Shown here: piece after piece, positions 2,247 to 17,008 of the stretch | Layout of the letters: the number at the start of each line of letters is the position of its first letter | How positions within the stretch are numbered: the first letter of the stretch is position 1 | Translations under genes and position numbers: made by a program | The notes under the pieces: generated by a model | What the model saw: the letters and a program-made list of their open reading frames with translations, nothing else | Told to the model about the DNA's origin: nothing | Database searches by the model: none | Assembly (NCBI GenBank): GCA_964607485.1 | Contig: CAZSKP010000019.1 | Span: 37,609-82,660 of the forward strand | Direction of reading: 5' to 3' | DNA length: 45,052 bases | From: an uncultured bacterium | GTDB lineage: Bacteria; Abyssobacteria; SURF-5

Positions 2247-3759
2247 CCGCGCCGCCCTGCTCGCGAAGGACGCGCTTGAGAATCTTCCCCGCCGGATTGC
2301 GCGGCAATGCATCCACGAACCTGACCGATTTCGGAATCTTGTATCCGGCGAGCTTGCTCTTGCAGAACAGTTGAATCTCCTCGACGGTCAGGCTTTGTCC
2401 CGGAAGCGGAACGACAACGGCGCAGACACTTTCGCCCCATTTTTCGTCGGGCACCCCGATGACGCCAACCTCCGCCACCTTCGGATGACCTATTATCGCT
2501 TCCTCCACCTCCGCCGGATAGACGTTTTCGCCGCCGGTTATCAGCATGTCCTTCTTTCTGTCGACCACATAGATGTAGCCTTCCTCGTCCAGCTTCGCCA
2601 GGTCACCGGAGTGAAACCAGCTGTCGGTGAACGAGGCCGCTGTCTCCGCCGGCAGGTTCCAGTACCCCTTCGTCACCACCGGCCCGCGCAGCATCAGCTC
2701 GCCTATTTCGTCGAGTTGCGTGTCGTTCCCTTTCTCGTCCCAGACGCGGGCATCGCAGTAAAACATCGGCTTGCCGCACGAGCCGAACTTGCGCTCGAGG
2801 TCTTCGGTGTCGAGCACAATGCCCGTTCCGCTGGTTTCCGTCATTCCGAAGCCCTGCCTGATGAGCACATTGTGGTCAAGATACGCGCGGAGCACGGGAG
2901 CCGGACACGGGGCTCCCCCGACGAAGAGACAATCGAACGAACTCAGGTCGTATTCATTAAAGCCCGAAACCTGTGACATGAAGAGAAGCATCGCCGGCAC
3001 TATGAGCGCAGTGCGGATTTGCTCCTTCTCGATCAATCGAAGTGCGTGCTCGGGATCGAAATAACGCTGTAGCACAGCCGTCTGGCCGCGGAAGATCGTG
3101 GGAAGCGCCTGTGCAGTGAGTCCGGCCACGTGGAACAGCGGCACGCATATGAGCACCGAGCCCTCGGCGGTTCCAACATGCTGTATTACGTTCAGTGATG
3201 CGAAAAGCGCGTTTCCATGCGTAAGGATAGCGCCCTTCGGCCGGCCGGTCGTGCCGGACGTGTACATGACTATCAGAGGGTCGTCGAGGGTGGTGGGCAA
3301 CATTTCGGGGTTGGAGTCCGATGCCTGGGTCAGCAGGTTTTCGTAATCTTCAACCGGCTTCGCAGCCTCCCCGCCGACGCACACATGCTTTTCGACGCCG
3401 ACATTCTGACTCAACGCCTCACAAATGTGAGAGAATTCGTATCCGTAAACCAGCATCCTCGCGCCGCTGTCGTTCAATATGTATTCGAGTTCGGGTGGAG
3501 CAAGCCTGTAGTTCAGCGGCACAAGCACTGCTCCCAGTTTCGCGAGGGCGAGCACGGTTTCTATGTATTCGCTCGAGTTGAACATCAGTGCGGCCACACG
3601 ATCGCCCGCGTTGATGCCCAACCCGCTCAGCGCGTGCGCGAGGCGGTTCACCCGCGAGTTGAGTTCGGCATAAGACAAACGCTTATCGTCCACCACGACG
3701 GCCGCAGCGCGTGGCCTGAGAGATGAATGCTTGCGCAGCCAATCGCCTACGTTAAGCAA
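2239..3759 (-). CDS. Long-chain fatty-acid--CoA ligase / AMP-dependent synthetase (FadD/MenE-like)
   Basis: Motifs YTSGTTGRPKG, GFGMTET, SGDL, DRKKDMLITGGENVYPAEVE, LPRNPAGKILK. TTG start preceded by SD GGAAGGAGG. Confidence 0.9.
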   Translation of the reverse strand: MLNVGDWLRKHSSLRPRAAAVVVDDKRLSYAELNSRVNRLAHALSGLGINAGDRVAALMFNSSEYIETVLALAKLGAVLVPLNYRLAPPELEYILNDSGARMLVYGYEFSHICEALSQNVGVEKHVCVGGEAAKPVEDYENLLTQASDSNPEMLPTTLDDPLIVMYTSGTTGRPKGAILTHGNALFASLNVIQHVGTAEGSVLICVPLFHVAGLTAQALPTIFRGQTAVLQRYFDPEHALRLIEKEQIRTALIVPAMLLFMSQVSGFNEYDLSSFDCLFVGGAPCPAPVLRAYLDHNVLIRQGFGMTETSGTGIVLDTEDLERKFGSCGKPMFYCDARVWDEKGNDTQLDEIGELMLRGPVVTKGYWNLPAETAASFTDSWFHSGDLAKLDEEGYIYVVDRKKDMLITGGENVYPAEVEEAIIGHPKVAEVGVIGVPDEKWGESVCAVVVPLPGQSLTVEEIQLFCKSKLAGYKIPKSVRFVDALPRNPAGKILKRVLREQGGAAT

Positions 3760-3812
3760 GACGTTTGCCCTCCTTCCCGTAAGCGGTGTTGCAGGATATG
3801 CTGAATAGTCGG

Positions 3813-3908
3813 CGGGAAGGTGCAGGAATCGAACCTACCCAGGACAGCTCTCGCAGCCCCTAACCTGGATTTGAAGTCCAGTGCGCACACCAGCACGCCT
3901 ACCTTCCC
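3813..3908 (-). tRNA. selC: tRNA-Sec (anticodon UCA)
   Basis: The reverse complement folds with an 8-bp acceptor stem (GGGAAGGT/ACCTTCCC), a 6-bp D-stem with TGGT loop, anticodon arm CTGGA-CTTCAAA-TCCAG, a long variable arm, T-arm GTAGG-TTCGATT-CCTGC and discriminator G. The encoded 3' end is CCG, not CCA. Confidence 0.95.
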
Positions 3909-3910
3909 AT
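3870..3910. repeat. att-like direct repeat, left copy (5' half of selC)
   Basis: TTTGAAGTCCAGTGCGCACACCAGCACGCCTACCTTCCCAT matches 15064-15104 at 39/41 positions. Confidence 0.9.
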
Positions 3911-3946
3911 AAGCCTGTAACAGGTTCTGCCACAATATCTTATGTT

Positions 3947-4273
3947 TCATTGGGCAGGCTCCTGTTTCTCGGAGAATTCTAAAATCGTCCTTGTTCTTGT
4001 CCTTGTCGAGCCGTTGTTTCCGGCCAAAAACGCTTCTTGCTTTTCAGCGGCACGTCTCAGGTCGGCATTGTTCACGATGTCACATCTTTGGAGCACGGAC
4101 GCCGTCCGATGCCCGGTTATCTGCATCGCTATTCTCACAGGAACGCCGGAGCGTGTCAAGTTTCTCACACATGTCCGTATCAGGTCGTGGAACAGCTTAC
4201 CTTGAAGCCCTGCCGCTTTGCAAGCCTTATCCCATGCGTGTTCGAAGTCTGCCATAAGACATGCAAAGGGCAT
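3947..4273 (-). pseudogene. Tyrosine integrase, C-terminal remnant (inactive)
   Basis: WDKACKAAGLQGKLFHDLIRTCVRNLTRSGVPVRIAMQITGHRTASVLQRC. The HxxR Arg is replaced by Ile and the catalytic Tyr (RY) by Cys; the N-terminal part is missing. Confidence 0.85.
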
Positions 4274-4590
4274 TACTCATATTTCTTAGAACAAAGAAGG
4301 AGGCATACCAACATGAGCTACAAGCTTCTTGTAGAAAATTGGATTCCTATTCTATGAACCGACGGCAAGACAATCCGCCAGGCGACGCGGGCACAGGCTC
4401 CAGCCACGTATTTACCTCGGGTTGGTTTTCAAGACTAGACAATAATAGAGAATGCTTTAACCTTTTCGGTGAGGGGAAAAGATTCTGTTAATATCACAAG
4501 TCCGGCACCCGCAAGGACAAGAAGCTTTCCGCTGTCCTGCCACCGATAACCGTACCACCCTTCATGTTAGTCCCAAAGCCGTAAGACTCG

Positions 4591-4645
4591 TAGCTGCTCC
4601 CCTATGGGGAGGCCAGGGTACCCTAGCCTCCCTATCAAGCAGCTA
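4591..4645 (-). terminator. Long imperfect hairpin just downstream of the GT-C gene (terminator or REP-like)
   Basis: Outer arms TAGCTGCT/AGCAGCTA; inner arms GGGAGGC/GCCTCCC around palindromic AGGGTACCCT. No clear U-tract. Confidence 0.4.
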
Positions 4646-4657
4646 TGGAAATGGTTT

Positions 4658-6361
4658 TCAGTCTGACTTAATAACTGGTACCGTCGGCGGGGCAGGCCGT
4701 TGCTTCGGCTCAACCACGTAGATTCTTCCCTCACTCGACGAAAAATACAATTGAGCGGGCAGCTCTGCCTTGAGCTTTTCCTCCGGCAAAATAAACGGAA
4801 GGGTTAAGTGCGAATCGAAATAGACGAATATTGCGCCCTTTGTTCTCACATTCTTGGCAAGGTACAACCTGGCAGAATAGTACTCAGTCTTGTGCACATA
4901 ATAATGTGGTCTTAGGGGAAGCCAGTTGGCCCATCTGCCGACCTGTGTGCTGACGGCTTGTTGCGCGTTTGTGTATATCGGCATATCCGAGGGGAATTCT
5001 TTGATTTTTTCCATAATCCTTGGATAATGGTATTCCTCCTTATTTTGACCGATCCCCTCGGAGTGACTCTTGATTACATACTTCGAGGCATAAAAGACAT
5101 ACACACTTGAAAAAGCCATGGCGAAAACCACACACGCAAACTTGACCTTGCGAAATCTGTCCTTGAAGCAAAATAGCTCTTGAGCAGTCAGCAATACAAG
5201 GATAACCGCCGCCACAAATAAAGGTGATAGGTGGCGAACGTTCAGGGTCAGTCTTTGAGCCACGGAGCCTTTTGTTAGCCCGTAAAGCAACGGATAACAA
5301 TAAAGGAAAACAGCCAATACAAGAGCGATTCTGGGGGGATATCGCCCAATGGAGTCCTTCCCGCCAAGCCTGACCGTTCGTTTCTGAATCAGGACTCTTA
5401 TAATGACAAATATTGTGATTGTCGTGAGTACGCAGAGAACTGCAATACCCACGGCGGCTGAATCTTTTGCCGGCCAGCCCCATTTCGAAATAGTCAACAG
5501 GCCATTATACAGAAAACGAGAAGTGATTGGGCGGAATCCACGGTCAAATCCTCCGGCCGTTTTCATACCTCTTTGCTGAAGCCATGCGACCCAAAAAATC
5601 GTCGGCAAACTGCTGAGTATGACAAAGATGGCGGAATCCCGAAGCCTATTCCGGAAAGTCTTTTCCCATTGGCAAAAGATACCCGCCAGTCCCGCGACAA
5701 TCAGCGTTGCACCAGTGTAACGGATGAGAAACGCGAGCGCAGTCGCTGCCCCCGAAAAGACCAGGAACCATTTCTTTTGATTATTGAGATATTCGCTCAG
5801 CAAATAGAATCCCAAGAAACCAAAAAAGACAAATGGCGCTTCGGTCCGCGCGTAGGAATGTATGTGCAGCATGCTTGTTGAACTCAGGATCAGAAAAGAG
5901 CCAAATAGGGGCGTCCAAAAGGATGCAGGAGCGGCCTTTCTTATTATTTGTCCTACGAGCAGGATAGTGGCGCCAAACAGGAGGGCATTGAGCCATCTGG
6001 CGCCCACAAAGAGGTCTATTCCAAAGCTCCCAATTATAAAAAGCAGCGATGGATAGCCGGCAGCGATTCTGCTATCGCTAATCGGATTGTCAAGATCTCC
6101 ATATCTGAATCCGTTGCCACCAAGCAGATTCCAAGCGGTGCCTACGTACTCAATTGCGTCGGTGTCAGTGCCGATACCCCACCTCGTACAGAAGAGAATA
6201 GTTAATACCCCGGCAAGGGACAGCACAATGAGGAGGACTAGCAAATAATCATTTCGCGTCATCCGGCTGATTCGTCTCTCGATCCACGGCAAGCCCAGGC
6301 ACGGCGACGGAAGATGAAATATCGACCCTTTGTTTCCTGATTTCCTCTTTTCCGTTTCCAT
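4658..6361 (-). CDS. Polytopic membrane GT-C glycosyltransferase (ArnT/PMT-like)
   Basis: Many hydrophobic helices, acidic first loop DTDAIEY, GYPSLL, ARTEAPF and LIRYTG motifs typical of lipid-linked-sugar transferases. Confidence 0.7.
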   Translation of the reverse strand: METEKRKSGNKGSIFHLPSPCLGLPWIERRISRMTRNDYLLVLLIVLSLAGVLTILFCTRWGIGTDTDAIEYVGTAWNLLGGNGFRYGDLDNPISDSRIAAGYPSLLFIIGSFGIDLFVGARWLNALLFGATILLVGQIIRKAAPASFWTPLFGSFLILSSTSMLHIHSYARTEAPFVFFGFLGFYLLSEYLNNQKKWFLVFSGAATALAFLIRYTGATLIVAGLAGIFCQWEKTFRNRLRDSAIFVILSSLPTIFWVAWLQQRGMKTAGGFDRGFRPITSRFLYNGLLTISKWGWPAKDSAAVGIAVLCVLTTITIFVIIRVLIQKRTVRLGGKDSIGRYPPRIALVLAVFLYCYPLLYGLTKGSVAQRLTLNVRHLSPLFVAAVILVLLTAQELFCFKDRFRKVKFACVVFAMAFSSVYVFYASKYVIKSHSEGIGQNKEEYHYPRIMEKIKEFPSDMPIYTNAQQAVSTQVGRWANWLPLRPHYYVHKTEYYSARLYLAKNVRTKGAIFVYFDSHLTLPFILPEEKLKAELPAQLYFSSSEGRIYVVEPKQRPAPPTVPVIKSD

Positions 6362-6822
6362 GACTGCAGATTCGAATGTGTAAGGGCGGCTCGCGGGTTA
6401 TCCCTCCGGCGTCGTCCTAATTCCCAGTTGATTTTCAAGGCGACTAATCGCGGAAGTCGTTCTCCGGGACCCAATATGTGACAGCTGTTTGCGGCGTCAT
6501 ACCGTCGCGCGCAACTTTACAGTAGAGTTTCGCAAGAACCGCGAGGGCGCGGGCTCCGAAATAACCGATACGAGAACCGCGCTGTTTTGCTTCATGTTCT
6601 GGCCGGGCAAACACGACATGAAAAGTAGCAGAGATCGGGGAGATTGTCAAGGAGAAACACTACAAATTGGGGACACCGGGGAGATGCTTTATGATAGCCG
6701 TAAATGTGCTTAGGACAGGGGGGGCGCATTGACTGAGTCCTGGAGATGAATTGCCGACTTGACTGCTACAAAGTTTGCCGAAATCCCGTGTCTTAGGAAA
6801 GTGGGCCTCCACCAAGAAATCT

Positions 6823-6851
6823 TTGACAGGATTAGGGGAGTTGTTTAGAAT
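6823..6851 (+). promoter_or_regulatory. sigma70-type promoter for the sqdB cluster
   Basis: TTGACA-17 nt-TAGAAT. Confidence 0.65.
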
Positions 6852-7013
6852 ATTACAATGGAAATCTTACCTACCGAAACGAGATATGACAAACCTTGGC
6901 CTGAACCGTAACTTCGGAGTTGTTGCTGGCCGGTTGTGATAACAATACGCGGCTTTTCAACAAAGAGTCATATCCGAGTTGTCTAAGGGAAATTCTAAGA
7001 TCGGAGTTTCACA

Positions 7014-8201
7014 ATGAAGGTCCTTATCACCGGGGTTGATGGATATTTGGGTTGGGCGCTATCGATTTATCTCGCCGCGCACGGTCACGAGGTCGCGGGC
7101 ATCGATAACTATATGCGTCGCGCGTGGGTGGGCGAAATGGGGTCCCAGTCCGCCATACCGATTGCAAGGATGGACGAGAGACTGCTGGCCTACAGGCGAT
7201 GCCTGGGCCAGAATTTGCGCTTTTATAAAGGTGACCTGACAGACTACGACTTCGTGCTGAACGCATACAAATCCTTCCGACCCGAGGCGGTGGTGTATCT
7301 CGGGGAGATGCCATCCGCCCCCTACAGCATGGTAGACGTGCGTCACGCCGTTTTCACCCAGACGAACAACATCATGGGAACCCTCATTACCCTTTACGCC
7401 ATGCGCGAGGCCGTGCCGGACTGCCACCTGGTCAAGCTGGGCACGATGGGCGAATATGGCACACCGAACGTGGACATCCCGGAAGGATTCTTTGAGATTG
7501 AGTACCGCGGACGCAAGGACCGCCTGATGTTTCCCAGGCGAGCCGGCAGCTGGTATCATCAGTCCAAGGTGCACGACTCGAACAACGTCGAGATGGCATG
7601 CCGCTTCTGGGGGTTGCGGTCGACCGACATCATGCAGGGCGTCGTCTATGGAACCTACATAGACGAAATGGGCGATGACAGCAGGCTGAGAACCCGGTTT
7701 GACTTCGACCAGAGCTTCGGCACCGCGATTAACCGATTCTGTGCGCAGGCGGTGATAAGCCTGCCCATCACCCCCTATGGCAAGGGACACCAGAAGCGCG
7801 GATTCATTCCTCTCAGGGACTCAATGCAGTGCTTGAGACTCGCCGCGGAGAATCCGCCGGAGGCGGGCGAATACAGAGTGTTTAACCAATTCGAGGAGGT
7901 CTACGACGTCACTCAGCTTGCCGAGCGCGTCCAGCGCGTCGGCAACAGGATGGGTCTGGATGTCGAAATCATGCCGCTTGAAAATCCGAGAATTGAGGAA
8001 GAAGAACACTACTACAATCCTGACCACCAGCACCTCCTCGACCTTGGTTACAAGCCCACGCACGACATGGAAAAAGAATTGGAGATAGTGTTCAAAGACC
8101 TCATCCCCCACAAGGAACGCATCGAATCGCGCAAGGAGGCCCAATTCCCCGATATCCGCTGGGACGGAACACGAGAAAAGGTCTCAATTCTGATGATATA
8201 A
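7014..8201 (+). CDS. sqdB: UDP-sulfoquinovose synthase family (SqdB/SQD1/Agl3)
   Basis: GVDGYLGW, SAPYSM, HLVKLGTMGEYGTPNVDIPEG, YHQSKVHDS, TDIMQGVVYG, FGTAINRFCAQAV and NPRIEEEEHYYNP are family signatures. Confidence 0.88.
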   Translation: MKVLITGVDGYLGWALSIYLAAHGHEVAGIDNYMRRAWVGEMGSQSAIPIARMDERLLAYRRCLGQNLRFYKGDLTDYDFVLNAYKSFRPEAVVYLGEMPSAPYSMVDVRHAVFTQTNNIMGTLITLYAMREAVPDCHLVKLGTMGEYGTPNVDIPEGFFEIEYRGRKDRLMFPRRAGSWYHQSKVHDSNNVEMACRFWGLRSTDIMQGVVYGTYIDEMGDDSRLRTRFDFDQSFGTAINRFCAQAVISLPITPYGKGHQKRGFIPLRDSMQCLRLAAENPPEAGEYRVFNQFEEVYDVTQLAERVQRVGNRMGLDVEIMPLENPRIEEEEHYYNPDHQHLLDLGYKPTHDMEKELEIVFKDLIPHKERIESRKEAQFPDIRWDGTREKVSILMI

Positions 8202-8387
8202 TCACTCTTGTCCAAAAAGGTCGTTTCTGAGTTATTTTGGACAGCAGTCTGATATAATATGAGTTGGCATAGACATCCATTATTCGTCTTCTGAGTGTAT
8301 CGGCGCATCAGACCTTGGCATCGCGAATGACCGTCGGCCAGGCAGCGATGACCAAGATAGGCTCATGCCTGCCCGGAGACTTTGCAC

Positions 8388-9434
8388 ATGGGTCCTCTTC
8401 GAATAATAGGCTGTATATTCGGGATTGTGATTTTCCTATTTGGCTTCACTCGCTTTCGCAAGCGTAGCCTGCGTCGACTTGACTTCCTGTTCTCATCGTT
8501 TATAGCCTTTGTGCTGGTAATCGTATCTGCCGCTCCTGACCTCGCTTACATTCTCCTCGAAATGTTTGCCTTCGAGCGTGTCCAATTTGGGCGACTCATT
8601 GCCTTAGCGATAGTTTCCAATTTCCTGCTCTGGTTTGTGGTCATCTATCTGAGGTCAAAGATAAACCAGCAGAGCAACCAGTTTGACGGCGTTGTGCGAG
8701 CCCTCGGCCTGGAGGAGTTTGAGAGCCTGTACGCTGACCGTGCAGTAGTTAAGCCGATTACCGTAATAATTCCTGCACTAAATGAGAAGACAAACCTGCA
8801 AAAATTGTTGCCTTTGATACCGGAGACCATAATTGGCAAGGAAGTGGGTACGCTAATAATCGACGATGGGAGCACAGACGGGACGACCGAGGCTCTAAGG
8901 GCTGAAAGCCATGTTGTCGTGCGAAACAAAACAAATCGGGGCGGTGGTGCAGCTATCAAGCTTGGACGTGACATTGCGCTTAAATACGGAGCTGAAATTA
9001 TCGTCACAATGGATGCTGACGGTCAGCATCGTCCGGAGGAGCTTGCTTCATTGGCGGAGCCTCTGCTATCTCGAGAGGCCGATTTCGTCATCGGCTCCCG
9101 TATCTTGGGACGGAGGGAAAAGGACAGCCTCTTCAGGTATATAGGAGTTATAATTTTCAGTCAGTTGATCAATATCCTATGTGATCTGCACGTTACTGAT
9201 TGCTCAAGCGGATATAGAGGGTTCACGGCCGAAGCGCTCAGGACGTTGGACTTGCGGCAGGATCAGTTTCACACATCCGAATACATAATCGATGCCGCGA
9301 AAAAGGGGCTGCGCATAAAAGAAGTTCCGGTCACGATTCTCAGGCGCACCCATGGTGAAAGCAAGAAGGGCAAGAACTGGAAGTATGGACTCAACTTTGT
9401 CCGAACCATAACAAAGACTTGGTGGCGAGCTTGA
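8388..9434 (+). CDS. GT2 polyprenol-phosphate glycosyltransferase (DPM1-like) with N-terminal membrane (DUF2304-like) domain
   Basis: About three N-terminal TM helices, then IIPALNE, IDDGSTD, NRGGGAA, MDADGQH, VIGSR, TDCSSGYR. ATG 8388 follows GGAG (the ORF track starts at TTG 8382). Confidence 0.85.
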   Translation: MGPLRIIGCIFGIVIFLFGFTRFRKRSLRRLDFLFSSFIAFVLVIVSAAPDLAYILLEMFAFERVQFGRLIALAIVSNFLLWFVVIYLRSKINQQSNQFDGVVRALGLEEFESLYADRAVVKPITVIIPALNEKTNLQKLLPLIPETIIGKEVGTLIIDDGSTDGTTEALRAESHVVVRNKTNRGGGAAIKLGRDIALKYGAEIIVTMDADGQHRPEELASLAEPLLSREADFVIGSRILGRREKDSLFRYIGVIIFSQLINILCDLHVTDCSSGYRGFTAEALRTLDLRQDQFHTSEYIIDAAKKGLRIKEVPVTILRRTHGESKKGKNWKYGLNFVRTITKTWWRA

Positions 9435-9509
9435 GAAGTCCGTTATGCGGTTACCAACTATGGCTTGCATTATATAAGGAAATATCCAGAACGCAGGGAT
9501 AGAATAGCG

Positions 9510-10289
9510 ATGAAAAAGTTCAAACGCGGGTCCCGAATGGAATTGGATTATAAAAAGCTTGAGGTCAAGGGGAGCGGGGCTATTGGCGAAAAGGTTTTGA
9601 ATAGATATGAGAGCAGTCCGGGAATCAGGCATGTTTTCAAGAGACATAACAAGAAAATACTTGAGAATATCTCCCTCACTCCATATGAAAACCTTGCCTC
9701 CACCAGACTGCTTGAGATAGGGTGCGGCTTTGGAGAGTTCTTGGCCGAGGCACAGAAGATAATTGGTCAAGTTTATGGCATTGACCTTGTGCAGGACCAA
9801 TTAAGAGCAGCTAAAACAAGAATATCGGGGAATTCGAGCGTTTTGATGGCGGATGGAGAATATTTGCCATTTGGGGATCATGTTTTTGACTTCATTCTAA
9901 TGAAGGGTGTCGTTCACCACTTGGGGAATCCTCGCCAGGTATTCAAAGAGGCCAGAAGAGTTCTTCTTGACAATGGAAAGCTTATTATCTTCGAGGGGAA
10001 CCCCTCGTCGTGGTATCGAAAGTTTGTATTAGGGATCGCAGACCTTCTTCGCATAGAACATGAGAGCAGTCTTTTCCCTCATCTTTCGTCTGATAAGATT
10101 GAAGCTTTTCTACGAAAGACTGGATTCTCTACAGAACACAAGAGAGTCTCAGGTTTGTTCGCACCGCTTGGATTGGCTGGCATAGGCAACAACATATTGT
10201 GGGAAAAGCTTAATTACCTGGAGGATGTTCTTGAAAACACATTTTCATTTTTTATGTGGTACAACCTGATAATTGCAACCCCGGCCTAA
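9510..10289 (+). CDS. Class I SAM-dependent methyltransferase
   Basis: LLEIGCGFG, ADGEYLPFGDHVFD, VVHHL, EARRVL. Start uncertain (9465, 9510 or 9537). Confidence 0.8.
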   Translation: MKKFKRGSRMELDYKKLEVKGSGAIGEKVLNRYESSPGIRHVFKRHNKKILENISLTPYENLASTRLLEIGCGFGEFLAEAQKIIGQVYGIDLVQDQLRAAKTRISGNSSVLMADGEYLPFGDHVFDFILMKGVVHHLGNPRQVFKEARRVLLDNGKLIIFEGNPSSWYRKFVLGIADLLRIEHESSLFPHLSSDKIEAFLRKTGFSTEHKRVSGLFAPLGLAGIGNNILWEKLNYLEDVLENTFSFFMWYNLIIATPA

Positions 10290-10430
10290 TGCCCATTTCT
10301 GTCTGAAAGGAACTCAGGACTCAAGAGAACCATTATCCCTTTCGGTGCTAGCACGGCAGGATCATCTCGATTTGAAGATTGTCGTTGAATGGAAGTACAC
10401 GATGAAGGCCAATGAGATTGACAGCAACTC

Positions 10431-10649
10431 TTGACGACAAAACAATGGGATTCGTTCTCAACCGACGCGGTTGTGTACCGACATGAGAATCTTACGGCCG
10501 AGCAGATCATGGCGGCAAGAAGGCAGGCGTTCAGACGTTTCTACTTGCGTCCAAAGACCGCAATAAGGATATTGGGGCAGATTTCAAGTCTTTCCGATAT
10601 AAGAAACAACATTAACCTCGGCTGGAAATTCCTGGTCAGGCCGAAATGA
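10431..10649 (+). pseudogene. C-terminal fragment of a B12-binding radical SAM protein
   Basis: WDSFSTDAVVY...LTAEQIMAARRQAFRRFYLRP resembles the C-terminal tail of cobalamin-dependent radical SAM enzymes; no CxxxCxxC-containing ORF upstream. Confidence 0.55.
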
Positions 10650-10761
10650 AGACGGGGGGAAACCGCCCTTCGCCCCTTTTCTCATCCAAAATCAAGTCGA
10701 GTCGGAAATGGGATTGCGGGAAGCGGTAATTGTCAATATCCGAATGGGCATTTGAAAGAAA

Positions 10762-11394
10762 ATGGCCACATTTTCTGAAAGACTCGTCCTTTTAATCAAC
10801 TTCCTGCTTGTTCCCCTCCGTCTGGCAATACCCCAGCCCGTGATAGAAAAGATCCCACTCCTGAAAACCAACCGGGAGGAGAGGTTCGGGCGGGTGCTGG
10901 CGGAGTATCGCGGAAAGGCTCTGGACATAGGTTGCAGGCACAACGTTATCATAAAGAAATACCGGGAGTTGGGAAATTGTGGGGAAGGGGTCGACATTTA
11001 TCATTGGGACGGAGCCGATCTCATCGTGGAGGACACGTCGCGTCTGCCATACGAGTCGGAAACATTCGACACCGTCTCTATTGTGGCCTCATTGAACCAC
11101 ATCCCCAATCGCATCGATGTCCTCAAGGAAGCGCACCGCCTGCTGAGGCGTGACGGCAGGCTCGTGATAACGAACCTGACGCCATTCGTCTCGAAGGTCT
11201 GGCACGTGTTCTGCTTCTGGGATAGAGAGTATGCCGTGCGGGGTGGCCTTCAGGAAGGCGAGGTGTGGGGATTCACGGACAAGCAATTGATGCAGCTTGT
11301 TGAGGCTGCCGGCTTTCGCCTCATAAAGAAAAGCGGTTTCTTGTGGGGCTTGAACCACCTGTATGTTTTCGGACGAAACCGTGTAGCATCGTAA
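10762..11394 (+). CDS. Class I SAM-dependent methyltransferase
   Basis: ALDIGC, LPYESETFDTVSIVASLNHIP, EAHRLLRRDGRLVI. Confidence 0.8.
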   Translation: MATFSERLVLLINFLLVPLRLAIPQPVIEKIPLLKTNREERFGRVLAEYRGKALDIGCRHNVIIKKYRELGNCGEGVDIYHWDGADLIVEDTSRLPYESETFDTVSIVASLNHIPNRIDVLKEAHRLLRRDGRLVITNLTPFVSKVWHVFCFWDREYAVRGGLQEGEVWGFTDKQLMQLVEAAGFRLIKKSGFLWGLNHLYVFGRNRVAS

Positions 11395-11410
11395 CAGAGG
11401 GAATGGCCTC

Positions 11411-13435
11411 ATGTGCGGAATCTTCGGCTTGACGATTAGAGATACCGCGTCCCTTGAGTTCGGACAAGTGAGCAGATATATAAGCGGGCTCTTCAAGCTC
11501 TCCGAATCCAGAGGCAAAGAGGCGGCTGGGTGCGCAATACGCTCCGGGGAGTCGATACATGTGTACAAGCGGCCCGTCTCAGCCTCAGTGATGATCAAGT
11601 CCGATTCCTACCGTCAGTTCTTGGCGAATGCGGTCATCGGCCCCACAAACGGGCGCCAGTCGGCTGTGCCGCCGTTAAGCATGATAGGGCATACGAGGCT
11701 GGTGACGGACGGCGCGCAGGAACGGACCGAGAACAATCAGCCGGTGGTGAAAGAAGGCGCAGTGGGCATTCACAACGGAATTGTCGTGAACGTCGCCAAT
11801 CTCTGGGCCAGATTCCCGCAATTGAAAAGAGAGTCCGAACTGGATTCGGAGATAATCTTCGGCCTAATACGTCTGTATCAGGATGAGAAAAAATCCCTCA
11901 CGGGCGCCGTCTCTGAAATGTTCAGCGACATCCAGGGGTCGGCTTCAATAGCGGCGCTGTTCAACGATCTCGGATACTTGCTCCTGGCCACGAATACCGG
12001 TTCGCTCTACGTCGGCGGCAACGAAGGTCACGATGCACTGATGTTCGCGTCGGAGCTATATATCCTTAGAGACTTCATCAGGATATTCAAGATTGAGAAC
12101 GCGTTCGGGAAGTGCGGGATAGGGCAGGTCAGGCCGGGGCATGGGATGCTCATTGACATAGGCAGTCTCGAGCGAGCGGAGTTCGCGTTCGGAGACGGCC
12201 AGAGAATCGAGCCCGACGAAAGACTGTCTAAGCCCTTGACAGTAAGAATGGCCGGAAACCCGGCCGAAGATAGGGGAAGGACACGGGTTTATCGGGGAGA
12301 AGCGGTAAGGTGGTCGAGGTACGAAAAGGATTTTCAGGAAGCGAGAAGACGCATAAACGCTCTCAGACGATGTGAGAAGTGCGTCTTGCCCGAGACCTTT
12401 CCCTTCATAGAGTTTGACGAGAGCGGCATATGCAACTACTGCAATCATTATCTGAAGATACCATTGAAGAGTAAAGACGAATTTGAGGCGATTGCGGATA
12501 GATACAGGAGAAGGGATGGCGGGCCGGACTGCATCGTCGGGCTAAGCGGCGGGAGGGACAGCAGCTTCGGGCTTCACCACCTGAAGACCGAGCTCGGTCT
12601 GAATCCCATCGCATTTTCGTACGATTGGGGGATGCTCACAGACCTTGGCAGAAGAAACCAGGCGAGGATGTGCGGAAAGCTCGGCGTGGAACACATAATA
12701 GTCTCGGCCGACATTACAAGGAAACGAGACTATATAAGACAGAACGTGGAGGCCTGGCTCAAGAAGCCCGACCTGGGCGTCATTCCGCTTTTCATGGCGG
12801 GTGATAAGCAGTATTTCTACTATGCGAACAAGCTTATGCGGCAATACAATACTGAAATAATGGTGATGGCGGAGAATCCCCTGGAGAGGGCGTATTTCAA
12901 ACATGGATTTTGCGGAATTAAATTCAAGGCCTCTGATAAACCGCCTTATGAATTGGGAATTCTGGACAAAATCAGGATAGCTGCTTACTATGGGAAACAA
13001 TATCTTCTGAATCCTTCATACATCAACGTTTCGATTATCGACACAATAGGGGCGTACTTCTCGTATTATCTGATACCTCACAACTATTTCTCTCTTTTCG
13101 ATTATATGCTGTGGGACGAGGAGGAGATCATCTCCACCCTCAGAGAAGAGTACGACTGGGAACTGGCGGACGACACAGAGTCCACGTGGAGGATAGGAGA
13201 CGGAACGGCGGCCTTCTATAATTACATCTACTATCTTGTCGCCGGCTTTACGGAGATTGACACGTTCAGGAGCAACCAGGTCAGGGAGGGGGCAATCGAT
13301 AGGCAAAGGGCTCTGGAACTTGCACAGCTAGAGAACGCCCCGAGGTGGAAATCCATAGAATGGTACGCGCGCACTATCGGGCTTGACTGCGGCAAGGCGC
13401 TGGAAGTCATCAACACTATTCCGAAGCTCTATTGA
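11411..13435 (+). CDS. Class II glutamine amidotransferase fused to an N-acetyl-sugar amidotransferase (WbuX/WbpG-like PP-loop) domain
   Basis: N-terminal MCGIFG, GHTRL, HNGIVVN, DSE (Ntn GATase); C-terminal CEKCVLP..CNYC and SGGRDSS PP-loop. Confidence 0.75.
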   Translation: MCGIFGLTIRDTASLEFGQVSRYISGLFKLSESRGKEAAGCAIRSGESIHVYKRPVSASVMIKSDSYRQFLANAVIGPTNGRQSAVPPLSMIGHTRLVTDGAQERTENNQPVVKEGAVGIHNGIVVNVANLWARFPQLKRESELDSEIIFGLIRLYQDEKKSLTGAVSEMFSDIQGSASIAALFNDLGYLLLATNTGSLYVGGNEGHDALMFASELYILRDFIRIFKIENAFGKCGIGQVRPGHGMLIDIGSLERAEFAFGDGQRIEPDERLSKPLTVRMAGNPAEDRGRTRVYRGEAVRWSRYEKDFQEARRRINALRRCEKCVLPETFPFIEFDESGICNYCNHYLKIPLKSKDEFEAIADRYRRRDGGPDCIVGLSGGRDSSFGLHHLKTELGLNPIAFSYDWGMLTDLGRRNQARMCGKLGVEHIIVSADITRKRDYIRQNVEAWLKKPDLGVIPLFMAGDKQYFYYANKLMRQYNTEIMVMAENPLERAYFKHGFCGIKFKASDKPPYELGILDKIRIAAYYGKQYLLNPSYINVSIIDTIGAYFSYYLIPHNYFSLFDYMLWDEEEIISTLREEYDWELADDTESTWRIGDGTAAFYNYIYYLVAGFTEIDTFRSNQVREGAIDRQRALELAQLENAPRWKSIEWYARTIGLDCGKALEVINTIPKLY

Positions 13436-13497
13436 GCGCAGTCTCTCCCGCCTGCGAGAAGAAGCTGGGGAGAGCACAGCCTTAATCCCGGGAAAAT

Positions 13498-14793
13498 GTG
13501 GATATAGATGAAATCAAATCTCAGTTATCGCTGAAGCACAAATTCAATCGAGACGTTTCGTTCAACCTTCTCAGTCTTGCGGTGCTGGGTCTGTGCGGGA
13601 TAGTTATAAACATATTCATTGCGAAGTACCGCGGCTCCAGTGCCCTGGGCATCTTCAATCAGGTCTATGCGATATACGTGATCCTGTCACAGATCGCGGG
13701 CGGCGGAATACAGCTTTCCGCATTGAAGCACACCTCGTACAATCAGACTGACAACGCCGCGTGCTCGGAGATCGCATCATCGGCGCTCGTTCTTACCGCG
13801 ATGTGCGCGACGACGGTCTGCATCCCCTCCTTCCTCGCGAGCAATCAGGTGGGCGCAATACTTAACAGCGACAGCGTGGAACTCGGCCTGAAGCTCGCAA
13901 TCCCGGGACTGCTTCCTTTCTCCCTCAACAAAGTCTCCCTCAACGTCCTCAACGGAATGAGGAAGATGGGCGCATTCGCCTTTTTCCAGTCGCTCAGGTT
14001 TGTGCTCATTCTTCTGGGCGTGATACTTATCATCAAGATGGGGCTCCCGGACGCGTACATAGTCTTGTCGCTGTCCGTAACGGAGCTGCTCCTGTTCTTC
14101 GCTCTCGCGTTTTATGTCAACAGGCATGTCAAGCTGAGGTTTTCCTCGGGAATGAGCCGTTGGTTCAGAGAACACCTGTCTTTTGGGGGCAGGGGGATGC
14201 TCAGTGGCATTTTCACCGAAATGAATACAAGAGTGGACGTGCTCATGTTGGGATTCTTCCGCGACGACAAGACGGTTGGGATATACAGCCTTGCAGCAAT
14301 CCTGATCGAGGGCCTCAGCCAGTTGCACTTCGTCATAAGGAAGAACGTGGAGCCCGTTCTCGGAGGCTATTTCGCCGAGGGCGGAAAAGCCAAGATCACA
14401 AGCGCCGCCAGAAAAGTAAGACGGATCTTCCTCCCGCTGATGGTATCGATAGGGCTCGTAAGCGTGGCCCTTTATCCTTATGCCGTGAGGATATTCGTGG
14501 CAGACAAAGCCTTTTCGGCGAGTTTTACGCCGTTCGTCATACTGATTACCGGCCTCGTGCTGAGCTCGGGCTACAGACCCTTTAGCGGCATAATCCTGAT
14601 TGGCGGCAGGCCCGGCCTCTATTCATGCTTTATCCTGTCGCTGGTGCTGGGCAATGCCGCCCTCAATGCGGTCCTCATCCCTCTCTGGGGCATGAATGGC
14701 GCAGCCGCGGCGACAGCGTCTGTTTTCTTGCTTGAGGCATTATTTGTATTTGTTCTGTTGAGATTCAGCGCATTTGGGAAGGACAGTCAGTAG
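13498..14793 (+). CDS. Wzx-like polysaccharide/oligosaccharide flippase (MOP family)
   Basis: Many TM segments; RVDVLMLG...VGIYSLAA and LNAVLIPLWGMNGAAAAT motifs. Confidence 0.85.
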   Translation: MDIDEIKSQLSLKHKFNRDVSFNLLSLAVLGLCGIVINIFIAKYRGSSALGIFNQVYAIYVILSQIAGGGIQLSALKHTSYNQTDNAACSEIASSALVLTAMCATTVCIPSFLASNQVGAILNSDSVELGLKLAIPGLLPFSLNKVSLNVLNGMRKMGAFAFFQSLRFVLILLGVILIIKMGLPDAYIVLSLSVTELLLFFALAFYVNRHVKLRFSSGMSRWFREHLSFGGRGMLSGIFTEMNTRVDVLMLGFFRDDKTVGIYSLAAILIEGLSQLHFVIRKNVEPVLGGYFAEGGKAKITSAARKVRRIFLPLMVSIGLVSVALYPYAVRIFVADKAFSASFTPFVILITGLVLSSGYRPFSGIILIGGRPGLYSCFILSLVLGNAALNAVLIPLWGMNGAAAATASVFLLEALFVFVLLRFSAFGKDSQ

Positions 14794-15063
14794 CGAAGTG
14801 GTTATAGGTGGTGAAGCCTAAAGGGCGCAGCCCGGAACGCTTTACCAACCTCTTCCCAAAACGCTGATTCCCCTCTGCGCCAAGTGTGCTGAACCCCAAC
14901 ACGGGTGGGATACCCCCTTGGCTTCTGGATTGTACTTATTTTGTCCTTGTCTCAATCTAACTTCACCAAACTTAATCCAACTTGCCCCAAAGAAAGAACG
15001 CTGAGAAGCTCGAAACATAAGACATTCTCAGCGTTGCACTAAGACCATTTATCGCCGGTCGGT

Positions 15064-15104
15064 TTTGAAGTCCAGTGCGCCCATCAGCACGCCTACCTTC
15101 CCAT
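15064..15104. repeat. att-like direct repeat, right copy (displaced 5' half of selC)
   Basis: 39/41 identity to 3870-3910. It covers the tRNA 5' end through the 7-nt anticodon loop; both mismatches fall in the D-arm. Confidence 0.9.
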
Positions 15105-15169
15105 TTGTTGCGTCCTACCATTGCTTTCTCAGGCTTGGCATGTTCGGACTATAGTCAATGTTGTGGGCT

Positions 15170-15198
15170 ATTATATCAAGGGCGAGCCTCTGTTTCAA
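15170..15198 (-). promoter_or_regulatory. sigma70-type promoter facing the selC 5' fragment (probable original selC promoter)
   Basis: Minus strand TTGAAA-17 nt-TATAAT, ~65 nt upstream of the tRNA fragment's 5' end. Confidence 0.65.
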
Positions 15199-15225
15199 AG
15201 CAGCGGGTTTTCAAGCACTCGTCTC

Positions 15226-15266
15226 TTGACAAACGGCGGAAAGCCGTGTATACTTACCGGTAAGTA
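15226..15266 (+). promoter_or_regulatory. tetR promoter with overlapping palindromic operator
   Basis: TTGACA-17 nt-TATACT; perfect 16-bp palindrome TACTTACCGGTAAGTA at 15251-15266; SD GGAGG at 15271. Confidence 0.75.
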
Positions 15267-15282
15267 GATAGGAGGCAGCTCG

Positions 15283-15891
15283 ATGAAATCAGCCGAAGGC
15301 AATCGCGACTCAGCGACCTCCTTGTCAACGAAGGAGAGAATTCAGAGGGAAGCCATAACTATTTTTTCTAAAAAAGGTTATGATGCAACTTCAATGAGAG
15401 AAATCGCAGAGGCGTCGACCGTAACCAAGCCGGTGATTTACTACTATTTCAAGAGCAAGGAGAACCTCTGTAACCACCTCATCAGTTCGGCCATGGAAGA
15501 GTTTCGGCAACAGATTCGGGGCGTCTGCGAGGGAAGTTCCGGGGATGTGTTTGAGCAGCTCGTGCGCATGGTGCAGATTCACTTCGACTTCTGCCGGGGC
15601 CATATGGAATTTGTGCGATTCATCTACGCTCTCAACTTCGGTCCCGACAGGAAGAAGATTGACTATGACTTTTACTCGTATGGAATGGAGATTTTTCGGA
15701 TGATTACGGGAGTGATGTGCCGTGCGTCCGAAGCGGGCATGATTCGGGAGGGTAAAGAAGAGACCGCCGCAGATTACTTGCGAGGAATAATAAACATGTA
15801 TGTGATGCTCTACGTCGATGGCCGCTACGATCTCCCTCCGGAACTGGCACGGACGATAGTGACCGACATGGTGAACGGTCTGAAGCCCTAA
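15283..15891 (+). CDS. TetR/AcrR family transcriptional regulator
   Basis: HTH region FSKKGYDATSMREIAEASTVTKPVIYYYFKSKENL. Confidence 0.92.
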   Translation: MKSAEGNRDSATSLSTKERIQREAITIFSKKGYDATSMREIAEASTVTKPVIYYYFKSKENLCNHLISSAMEEFRQQIRGVCEGSSGDVFEQLVRMVQIHFDFCRGHMEFVRFIYALNFGPDRKKIDYDFYSYGMEIFRMITGVMCRASEAGMIREGKEETAADYLRGIINMYVMLYVDGRYDLPPELARTIVTDMVNGLKP

Positions 15892-15934
15892 CACCCCGAG
15901 GCCGACTAACAGAGCACAATCTGGAGCGCTTGCG

Positions 15935-17008
15935 ATGTCGAAGAAAAATATTCTTGGACTGACCCTCATAGTTTCGTTGATTGCGGTTGTGGTGGGGTTG
16001 CTTCTCCTTCCGGGCCCCACGAGGTCCACGGAGCAGCCGCCCGAAGAACGAACCACCGATGTCAGGATCATGGAAGTCAGCTCGGGCCCGCTTCATGAAT
16101 GGACCGAGCTGCCGGCCAGCGTGGAGCCGTTTGTCTTGACTCAGGTTCCAGCGGAAGTCGAGGGTCGCATCGATTGGATAGGCCCTGAAGAGGGTGACGT
16201 CATCAAAAAGCCCGGCGTCCCGATCTTGCGCATCGACGAGCGAACCTTCCGCGCGCAGATGGAAGACGCAAAGGCCGCATACGAGCTGTCGGCCAAGAGC
16301 TGCAAACGAATCGGAGATCTGCACGCGCAAGGACTTGTAAGCGACGAGCAGTTCGACCAGTGCCGGACCAAGCTGGCCAGCAACTCGGCGAGGCTCGACA
16401 TCGCCAAGATAGCGCTCGAAAAGGCCACGGTCACCGCTCCGATTGCGGGAATACTTGACAAGTCGTACTTCGAAGTCGGCGAGTACGTGCGTCAGGGCGA
16501 CCGCGTGGCCGATATCGTGGTGATCGACCCGGTGAAGATAACCTTCATGGTGCCCGAAAAAGACATCCCTTATATTCAACGGGGCGGGAAGGTCGGTGTG
16601 TCATTCGATTTCCTTCACGGAGAGAGTTACGAGGGCACTGTCAGCTACATCAGCGTTGTTGGAGACGAGTCCACCCGCACATATAAGGTCGAGGTAACGG
16701 TGCCGAACCCGGACCATAAGATTCTTCCGTCGATGATAGCCACCGTGAGGATCTTGAGGCGTGAGATTCCCGACGCCATCGCCGTTCCGCTGTTTGCGGT
16801 GATTCCGCGGGGGGACTACTCGGTGGTCTTTGTCGAAAAGGACGGCAGGGCCCACGAGCGCTTGGTCGAACTGGGAATCCTCGAGGGCACTCGTGTGCAG
16901 ATTATAAAAGGACTCGAGCCCGGGGATCGTCTCATCGTGGAGGGAAACCGCGAGCTGTCCGACGGCGAGGCTGTGCTGGTGCGCGATTCGATAGAGGCCT
17001 CGTCATGA
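15935..17008 (+). CDS. RND efflux periplasmic adaptor (membrane fusion protein)
   Basis: N-terminal TM anchor; AEVEGRI..EEGD, APIAG..GEYV..G, TRTYKVEV, GLEPGDRLIVEG. Confidence 0.9.
   Translation: MSKKNILGLTLIVSLIAVVVGLLLLPGPTRSTEQPPEERTTDVRIMEVSSGPLHEWTELPASVEPFVLTQVPAEVEGRIDWIGPEEGDVIKKPGVPILRIDERTFRAQMEDAKAAYELSAKSCKRIGDLHAQGLVSDEQFDQCRTKLASNSARLDIAKIALEKATVTAPIAGILDKSYFEVGEYVRQGDRVADIVVIDPVKITFMVPEKDIPYIQRGGKVGVSFDFLHGESYEGTVSYISVVGDESTRTYKVEVTVPNPDHKILPSMIATVRILRREIPDAIAVPLFAVIPRGDYSVVFVEKDGRAHERLVELGILEGTRVQIIKGLEPGDRLIVEGNRELSDGEAVLVRDSIEASS

Follow-up and report, generated by a model that had tools for sequence, protein, structure and literature searches.

In the Islander catalogue of islands integrated into tRNA genes (tDNA islands), 159 of the 3919 entries carry a 5' tDNA fragment and 2083 have anticodon-centered sites (PMC4383910; Hudson, Lau and Williams 2015); that account, in the part available to us, gives counts and no information on how a rebuilt tRNA is transcribed. 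Integration upstream of tRNA-Arg was also reported for the arg2A-VII / clade I.d islands of Klebsiella pneumoniae (bioRxiv 10.1101/2020.11.02.365908). Moreover, in the tRNA-dependent lysogeny of actinobacteriophages, integration takes place in the anticodon region without any rebuilding of the host tRNA, which is complemented by a tRNA that the phage encodes (PMC10865867). In this study, we analyzed a 45,052-nt stretch of DNA (hereafter the window) from contig CAZSKP010000019.1 (C19) of an uncultured SURF-5 bacterium (Abyssobacteria), in which an 11.2-kb island adjoins the gene of the selenocysteine (Sec) tRNA, selC. This locus is very probably a mobile tyrosine-integrase island of the anticodon-centered class, which entered the only selC gene in the reversed polarity and has since died.

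The integration site comprises the following features:

3811-3908, minus strand: rebuilt tRNA-Sec gene, anticodon TCA (ARAGORN, RF01852); its 5' part (3877-3908) is probably island-derived and its 3' part native
3867-3910: integrase-proximal copy of the direct repeat, tRNA nt -2 to about 42 (repeat comparison)
3870-3876, minus strand: anticodon loop CTTCAAA, putative crossover/overlap region (the identity block ends there, and in the classical island of the same integrase family identity begins at the anticodon stem)
15061-15104: displaced copy of the 5' part of tRNA-Sec (+1 at 15102), its D-arm changed at two positions (repeat and D-arm comparison)

The tRNA-Sec gene (tca) at 3811-3908 (minus strand) is the sole tRNA gene recognized by ARAGORN in the window, and its match to RF01852 (3814-3908) reaches 67.1 bits against a gathering score of 47 (Rfam), a value comparable to those of the relatives. 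The direct repeat, which can be read directly from the window, is identical at 41 of 44 positions (3867-3910 and 15061-15104), with 39/41 in its inner part (3870-3910 and 15064-15104), and it begins 2 nt before the tRNA +1 and ends with the last base of the 7-nt anticodon loop. Beyond the loop, the copies show one mismatch and two matches and then diverge. They are localized on the same contig and the same strand, 11,194 bp apart, and no third copy is present in the 4.7-Mb genome (93 contigs); in 100 shuffles, a 41/44 match was obtained by chance 0 times. The displaced copy is a 5' end fragment lying 11.2 kb upstream of tRNA-Sec in the sense of the tRNA. Its D-arm reads GCGTGC-TGAT-GGGCGC versus GCGTGC-TGGT-GTGCGC in the intact gene, where the G for T converts a D-stem G-U pair into a G.G mismatch, and the TGGT D-loop is shared by all six relatives of the host at the family level. 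The interval between the copies has a GC content of 0.45-0.57 against about 0.60 in the flanks. Thus, the locus shows what Islander takes as marks of a 5'-fragment tDNA island (PMC4383910), i.e., a full gene and a co-oriented fragment on the same replicon, an upstream 5' end fragment and a length of 2-200 kb.

Adjacent to the tRNA, and at the far end of the island, three further features were distinguished:

3947-4273, minus strand: tyrosine-integrase remnant, last approximately 100 residues (PF00589, alignment A1, tblastn)
3985-4006, minus strand: three tandem ACAAGGAC-type repeats, putative integrase-side arm sites (repeat scan; their position is analogous to that of the GGGCACAAT repeats in 5'-side tRNA-Arg elements)
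14941-14950, minus strand: distal ACAAGGACAA repeat, putative far-side arm site about 115 nt from the core (exact copies at both island ends)

The 108-codon integrase frame lies directly upstream of the 5' end of the intact tRNA gene and is co-oriented with it. As a C-terminal piece of 108 aa only, it reaches 26.9 bits with PF00589 (cut-off 27.1), and tblastn with six full-length relatives gave E values of 1e-22 to 3e-27, these proteins aligning to it only through their residues 262-403 or so. No sequence similar to the missing N-terminal residues (about 260) was found elsewhere in the island. In alignment A1, the catalytic Tyr of the R-Y-(D/N)-I-V motif, conserved in 12 of the 12 homologs, is replaced by Cys, and the Arg of the H-x-x-R box (box II) by Ile, so that the Arg-His-Arg-Tyr set of an active tyrosine recombinase is incomplete, and its N-terminal core-binding domain is absent as well. 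Judged by these changes, the integrase of the island is a dead stump, and since it is truncated and altered in two catalytic residues, the present arrangement should be fixed. When closer integrase relatives were sought in a set of 5.8 billion proteins, the best ones were 51-58% identical.

The ACAAGGAC-type repeats are putative arm-type integrase-binding sites. The 10-mer ACAAGGACAA has two exact copies in the window, both on the minus strand and one approximately 115-120 nt inside each island end; two one-mismatch copies also occur in tandem at the integrase end, and with at most one mismatch there are 8 matches in the window versus 2.06 expected.

An earlier description of this DNA, based on the letters without database searches (hereafter the original prediction), had pointed to the flanking 41-bp repeat reaching from the tRNA 5' end through the anticodon loop, to an island upstream of the intact gene and to two D-arm changes in the distal fragment. 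All three observations are borne out by the above comparisons, the remnant, the repeats and the GC shift all lying 5' of tRNA-Sec.

The anatomy of the wider integrase family, which was observed directly in other genomes, is a further line of evidence. One genome per species was scanned with alignment A1, which yielded 80 integrase loci, mostly from metagenome-assembled genomes of Desulfobacterota-like bacteria, Nitrospirota and NC10/Rokubacteria, and all of them were subjected to ARAGORN analysis. In 61 of the 80 loci, a convergent tRNA gene lies within 500 nt of the integrase stop, which is the classical 3'-side polarity (Leu 34, Arg 9, SeC 5, Phe 5, Gln 2, Pro 2, Lys 2, Met 1, and Thr 1), eight have no nearby tRNA and four end at a contig edge. 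The remaining seven (L069, L083, L084, L085, L104, L107, and L133) show the 5'-side polarity: they target tRNA-Arg (CCT or TCT), which is co-directional with the integrase, and the integrase stop is placed 9-44 nt before the tRNA 5' end, as in the window. Displaced halves were searched for in the genomes of five of these seven loci (all but L069 and L107). Three genomes hold tRNA-Arg 5' halves that extend as far as the anticodon loop or the 3' stem following it (42 nt, 100% identity; 39 nt, 100%; and 47 nt, 83%). In a fourth, a 5' piece of 28 nt lies 72 kb upstream and on the same strand, and no displaced tRNA-Arg 5' piece was detected in the fifth. Direct repeats of the GGGCACAAT (GGGCACA) type are localized 110-140 nt beyond each of the three halves and recur within the 3' end of the corresponding integrase gene.

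Furthermore, the genome carrying the window contains a classical island of the same family (contig C24:34870-43787, locus L044). Its integrase is full-length, a paralog sharing 43% identity with the remnant, and is oriented convergently to tRNA-Arg(CCT); a 3' fragment of this tRNA (55 nt, 54/55 identical), which begins at tRNA nt 30 and extends 9 nt beyond the gene, lies 8.8 kb away. As the identity of this classical island begins at nt 30, the integrase family may be regarded as anticodon-centered and the selC island as its mirror image.

Taken together, these data make an attP that carried a tRNA 5' half, with a crossover in the anticodon loop, the best reading of the locus, and one well supported by sequence comparison. 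The idea of a replacement 5' half in attP had been put forward in the original prediction, and it gains from both the same-family 5'-side elements and the mirror island in the genome. The attP would have had the order: integrase 3' end with arm sites, about 40 nt, tRNA-Sec 5' half, anticodon-loop overlap, hairpin with a U-tract, and far arm site. A crossover within the 7-nt anticodon loop would have created the intact gene at 3811-3908 by linking the attP 5' half with the native 3' half, and would have displaced the native 5' half with its promoter by 11.2 kb (15061-15198). The element-borne hairpin would probably halt transcripts of the stranded promoter ahead of the cargo genes, which they would otherwise enter in antisense. 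The rebuilt selC would be transcribed from island DNA, either from a promoter in or beside the integrase remnant or by read-through from the co-oriented upstream glycosyltransferase gene. The death of the element, with the loss of approximately 260 N-terminal integrase residues and the change of two catalytic ones, would be a later event. The crossover point, and which half is native, are inferred.

The candidate signals for transcription are as follows:

3976-4003, minus strand: promoter-like AGGACA-16-TAGAAT, 9/12, candidate island-borne selC promoter (consensus match; the -10 ends 67 nt before the selC +1)
4131-4159, minus strand: promoter-like TTGACA-17-GAGAAT with TG, 10/12, inside the integrase remnant (consensus match; 222 nt upstream of selC)
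14987-15035, minus strand: hairpin (11-bp stem, 14997-15035) followed by UUCUUUCUUU, terminator-like, just downstream of the fragment (fold prediction)
15170-15198, minus strand: promoter-like TTGAAA-17-TATAAT with TG before the -10, 11/12 (consensus match; the -10 ends 67 nt before the fragment +1)

The strongest of these matches (11/12, from 15198 to 15170), which had been noticed earlier upstream of the fragment, is the probable native selC promoter, now driving the fragment alone. It is worth mentioning that a match of at least 10/12 occurs within 114 nt upstream of selC in five of the six relatives, with 11/12 in four of them. The candidate island-borne promoter overlaps the ACAAGGAC repeats. 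No terminator was found in a scan between the glycosyltransferase gene (start at 6361) and selC, the hairpin at 4606-4631 having no T-run, and as no terminator-like site intervenes, read-through into selC is possible. A swap of promoters by integration is therefore plausible on consensus matches, and the original claim that both the selC 5' half and the promoter were exchanged stands as to the insertion mechanism, with its promoter part at this lower strength. Both candidate promoters end exactly 67 nt before their respective tRNA +1, and their upstream regions have no evident similarity by eye; this shared spacing is treated as a coincidence. Two near-consensus promoters also stand back to back within 85 bp (15170-15254) between the selC fragment and tetR, i.e., TTGAAA-17-TATAAT on the minus strand and TTGACA-17-TATACT on the plus strand, and the stranded selC promoter may share an operator region with the efflux operon that begins with tetR.

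The Sec machinery of the host, also observed directly, is intact: selA (577 bits), selB (386 bits), and selD (392 bits) were identified, and selD has a single in-frame TGA within the GGUACK active-site motif, which marks it as Sec-containing. The presence of intact selA and selB, and of a selD with such a codon, suggests that selC is expressed.

Several observations weigh against the proposed course of events. The repeat copies share their longest perfect run (20 nt, 3891-3910) at the 5' end of the tRNA and not at the anticodon loop, where the run is 17 nt long, and the D-arm defects of a supposedly native fragment require either two later substitutions within 34 nt or an exchange closer to the 5' end. 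Only consensus matches or predicted folds stand behind the promoters and the terminator, and the fragment hairpin has a z-score of just -1.54, i.e., modestly better than shuffled sequences. The displaced tRNA-Arg halves are localized on contigs other than those of their integrases, so that the link between them rests on the shared arm repeats. The placement of the remnant in the integrase tree is unsupported (terminal branch of 1.1-1.2, no supported neighbors). Finally, the empty site was not found. It was sought in stretches of up to 18 kb around selC in the six family-level relatives, with the use of tblastn, within a collection of 11 genomes of the phylum, none of the same genus. Genes of the amidase and the ligase were matched at the selC loci of these relatives; tetR was beside selC in none of the six, and the genes upstream of selC differ in every one of them. 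Similarly, no tblastn match for the membrane fusion protein (MFP), the RND protein or the island cargo, and no selC fragment, was detected at these six loci, and the two relatives that share a genus show no DNA similarity upstream of selC. The lack of a neighboring tetR formally agrees with a refuting condition set in the original prediction, but it is not decisive, given that the upstream flanks are dissimilar even in relatives of one genus. A scan of metagenome contigs with the ligase gave 80 loci and no close relative, 79 of them being 37-50% identical and one 77%; the latter locus begins inside the ligase gene and does not include selC.

Two of the relatives deserve separate mention. In G004 (L034, 2878-8045), about 5 kb, including a gene of a YfhO-like membrane protein, separates the ligase gene from selC, these genes being adjacent in the other five relatives; this stretch possibly arose by insertion 3' of selC. 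In G003 (L033, 9151-15117), a gene encoding a 1988-aa protein with RHS-repeat, SpvB and TcdB-middle-domain regions lies approximately 1 kb upstream of selC, which exemplifies the variability of this flank.

The first two of the above objections would be met by the same island with a crossover near the 5' end of the tRNA. In that case, the intact selC would be essentially all native and the distal 41-nt copy would be the imperfect tRNA-like attP of the element. The D-arm defects of the distal copy (the TGAT loop and the G.G mismatch) would then need no decay, the D-arm of the intact copy is exactly that of relatives G002 and G006, and the 20-nt perfect run lies at the 5' end. However, within the same family, one boundary of the identity blocks, be it their start or their end, falls at the anticodon stem-loop whichever the polarity, and an attP 5' half never used for rebuilding has no obvious reason to be retained. 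We consider this possibility improbable, though it is the most serious competitor, and it should be stressed that its practical outcome is identical, as the promoter is displaced in this case, too.

The original prediction went further and saw in the locus a possible recombinational control point over Sec decoding, in which excision and integration of the island would toggle selC between native and island promoters. Two promoters of unequal quality indeed precede the two copies, and a full-length paralogous integrase is encoded elsewhere in the genome. Nevertheless, the resident integrase has neither its N-terminal part (about 260 residues) nor the catalytic Tyr and one catalytic Arg, the paralog is just 43% identical and serves tRNA-Arg, the repeat copies have diverged (3/44), and no excisionase-like open reading frame was recognized, the three small frames scanned having no Pfam match. 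No joined (empty-site) form was present in the contigs of four sequencing runs (X1-X4), parts of the stretch being uncovered in X2-X4 and contigs not being able to exclude rare forms. With a dead integrase and an intact Sec machinery, an active switch is very hard to sustain and we set this part of the prediction aside.

That there was no insertion at all, the second copy being a chance duplication or the product of a chimeric assembly, is likewise given almost no credence, for although the genome is a draft in 93 contigs and the best-matching sequencing run, X1, is possibly its own source, no repeat match is expected by chance, an island would account for the integrase remnant, the arm repeats and the GC shift alike, and Logan contigs of X1, produced by a second assembler, cover 2500-5583 and 7583-16500 with 0 differences, both junctions included. 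Since X1 may be the source sample, this agreement checks the assembly and is no independent biological support. An assembly artefact is unlikely: exact runs common to the repeat copies are all shorter than 31 nt, and as none exceeds 20 nt and the X1 contigs show 0 differences, confusion of the repeats by the assembler is ruled out.

Returning to the reading with a crossover in the anticodon loop, the integrase family offers a broader perspective. The original prediction proposed to test whether intact homologous integrases also sit 5' of selC. This was not the case at selC itself, as the five selC loci of the family (L071, L095, L106, L125, and L129) are all 3'-side, whereas the arrangement did recur at tRNA-Arg, with seven 5'-side loci among the 80 and displaced 5' halves in three of five genomes. 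In the five genomes with classical selC-side integrases, no clear 3' selC fragment was found; a single selC-like piece of 87 nt lies at a contig end in G069. In quick trees (51 and 67 rows), the 5'-side integrases are scattered, and an AU (approximately unbiased) test on the 67-row tree, run after the first tree had been seen, speaks against the six 5'-side rows of tRNA-Arg forming one clade, which it rejects (p 0.0165); this tree omitted 16 rows shorter than 150 residues as well as L095 (masked stretch). Several rows of the trees are truncated.

Tentatively, and with clearly less confidence than for the island itself, we suggest that the polarity of anticodon-loop integration may have flipped more than once in this family, selC and tRNA-Arg(CCT) each having been used from both sides. 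The 5'-side elements would then have to supply the tRNA promoter from within or beside the integrase 3' end, overlapping the arm repeats, and a single-copy tRNA would remain dependent on element DNA after the death of the element. If this is true, the sole tRNA-Sec, needed by the host's own Sec-containing SelD, stays dependent on the DNA of a dead element. An integrase family that uses the same tRNA genes from either side is also a natural set for studying the switching of attP polarity and the hidden tRNA promoters of 5'-side elements.

Some further observations were made within this set. Four of the seven 5'-side integrases (L083, L085, L104, and L133) are N-terminally truncated (69-269 aa) and three are full-length. 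In L085 and L107, the integrase frame continues into the tRNA gene without a stop. On contig C84 of G061, the tRNA-Arg(CCT) with a 5'-side integrase also has a 68-nt 3' fragment (87% identity) 5.3 kb downstream (219-286 versus 5560-5695), and this gene may carry islands on both sides.

Between the integrase remnant and the displaced fragment, the island carries the genes listed below, which are given together with the chromosomal flanks:

2239-3759, minus strand: left chromosomal flank, acyl-CoA/AMP ligase (syntenic with selC in all six family relatives)
4658-6361, minus strand: membrane glycosyltransferase (PMT / PMT_2, GT-C type; profile match)
7014-8201, plus strand: UDP-sulfoquinovose synthase-like epimerase/dehydratase (NF041015, 559.7 bits versus a cut-off of 575; PF01370)
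8382-9434, plus strand: DUF2304 and GT2, polyprenyl-phosphate glycosyltransferase-like (AglJ/PpgS-like; profile match)
9465-10289, plus strand: S-adenosyl methionine (SAM)-dependent methyltransferase (profile match)
10762-11394, plus strand: SAM-dependent methyltransferase (profile match)
11411-13435, plus strand: glutamine amidotransferase and WbuX-like N-acetyl-sugar amidotransferase (profile match)
13498-14793, plus strand: Wzx-like polysaccharide flippase (profile match)
15283-15891, plus strand: right chromosomal flank, tetR, followed by the MFP and RND efflux genes (profile match)

According to these profile matches, the cargo is a predicted surface-glycan modification cassette. The UDP-sulfoquinovose-synthase-like enzyme, the DUF2304-GT2 protein and the GT-C glycosyltransferase look like a three-part, lipid-carrier-based set for glycan modification, which resembles the phage-borne gtr clusters adjoining int/attP.

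As regards its significance, the selC island is a clean, well-bounded case of a minority (about 4%) polarity of tRNA islands, found at a single-copy tRNA that the selenoprotein system requires, and it indicates that foreign DNA can become the lasting template from which a host transcribes such a tRNA. Current knowledge of island integration and of the control of Sec decoding is not altered by it. The novelty implied by the original prediction was overstated, as 5'-fragment islands had already been catalogued (159 of 3919, according to PMC4383910). A literature search, which could not take terms with a prime sign, returned no published 5'-side island at selC, and within the same limits the supply of promoters in 5'-side islands seems to have received little attention.

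Like the Islander islands with a 5' fragment (PMC4383910), the selC island combines a full tRNA gene with a co-oriented upstream 5' fragment, integrase sequence (here a C-terminal remnant) between them, identity ending at the anticodon loop and a length within 2-200 kb; unlike them, it has tRNA-Sec as its target and only a dead stump as its integrase. With the clade I.d islands of Klebsiella, it shares the localization of a tyrosine-integrase island upstream of the target tRNA, in which those islands, too, differ from their relatives. Their sublocation is, however, the D-loop according to the same report (bioRxiv 10.1101/2020.11.02.365908), whereas the identity block of the selC island ends at the anticodon loop, and the phylum and the tRNA are also different. 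In the actinobacteriophages, as here, integration in the anticodon region alters the host's source of functional tRNA, yet in the selC island the gene was rebuilt in place (compare PMC10865867). The seven co-directional tRNA-Arg elements have a matching anatomy, sharing the adjacency of the integrase and the tRNA 5' end, 5' halves ending at the anticodon loop, flanking short repeats and, in four of them, a truncated integrase, although their arm repeat is GGGCACAAT and that of the selC island is ACAAGGAC. The selC pathogenicity islands of enterobacteria belong to the classical, 3'-side selC-associated islands. The five classical selC loci found in the integrase family have the same target gene and an adjacent tyrosine integrase, but there the integrase converges on the 3' end of the tRNA gene, which retains its native promoter and 5' half in place; this is the opposite of the situation described here. 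The 5'-side polarity is thus already known, though uncommon, and the selC island adds a case at tRNA-Sec.

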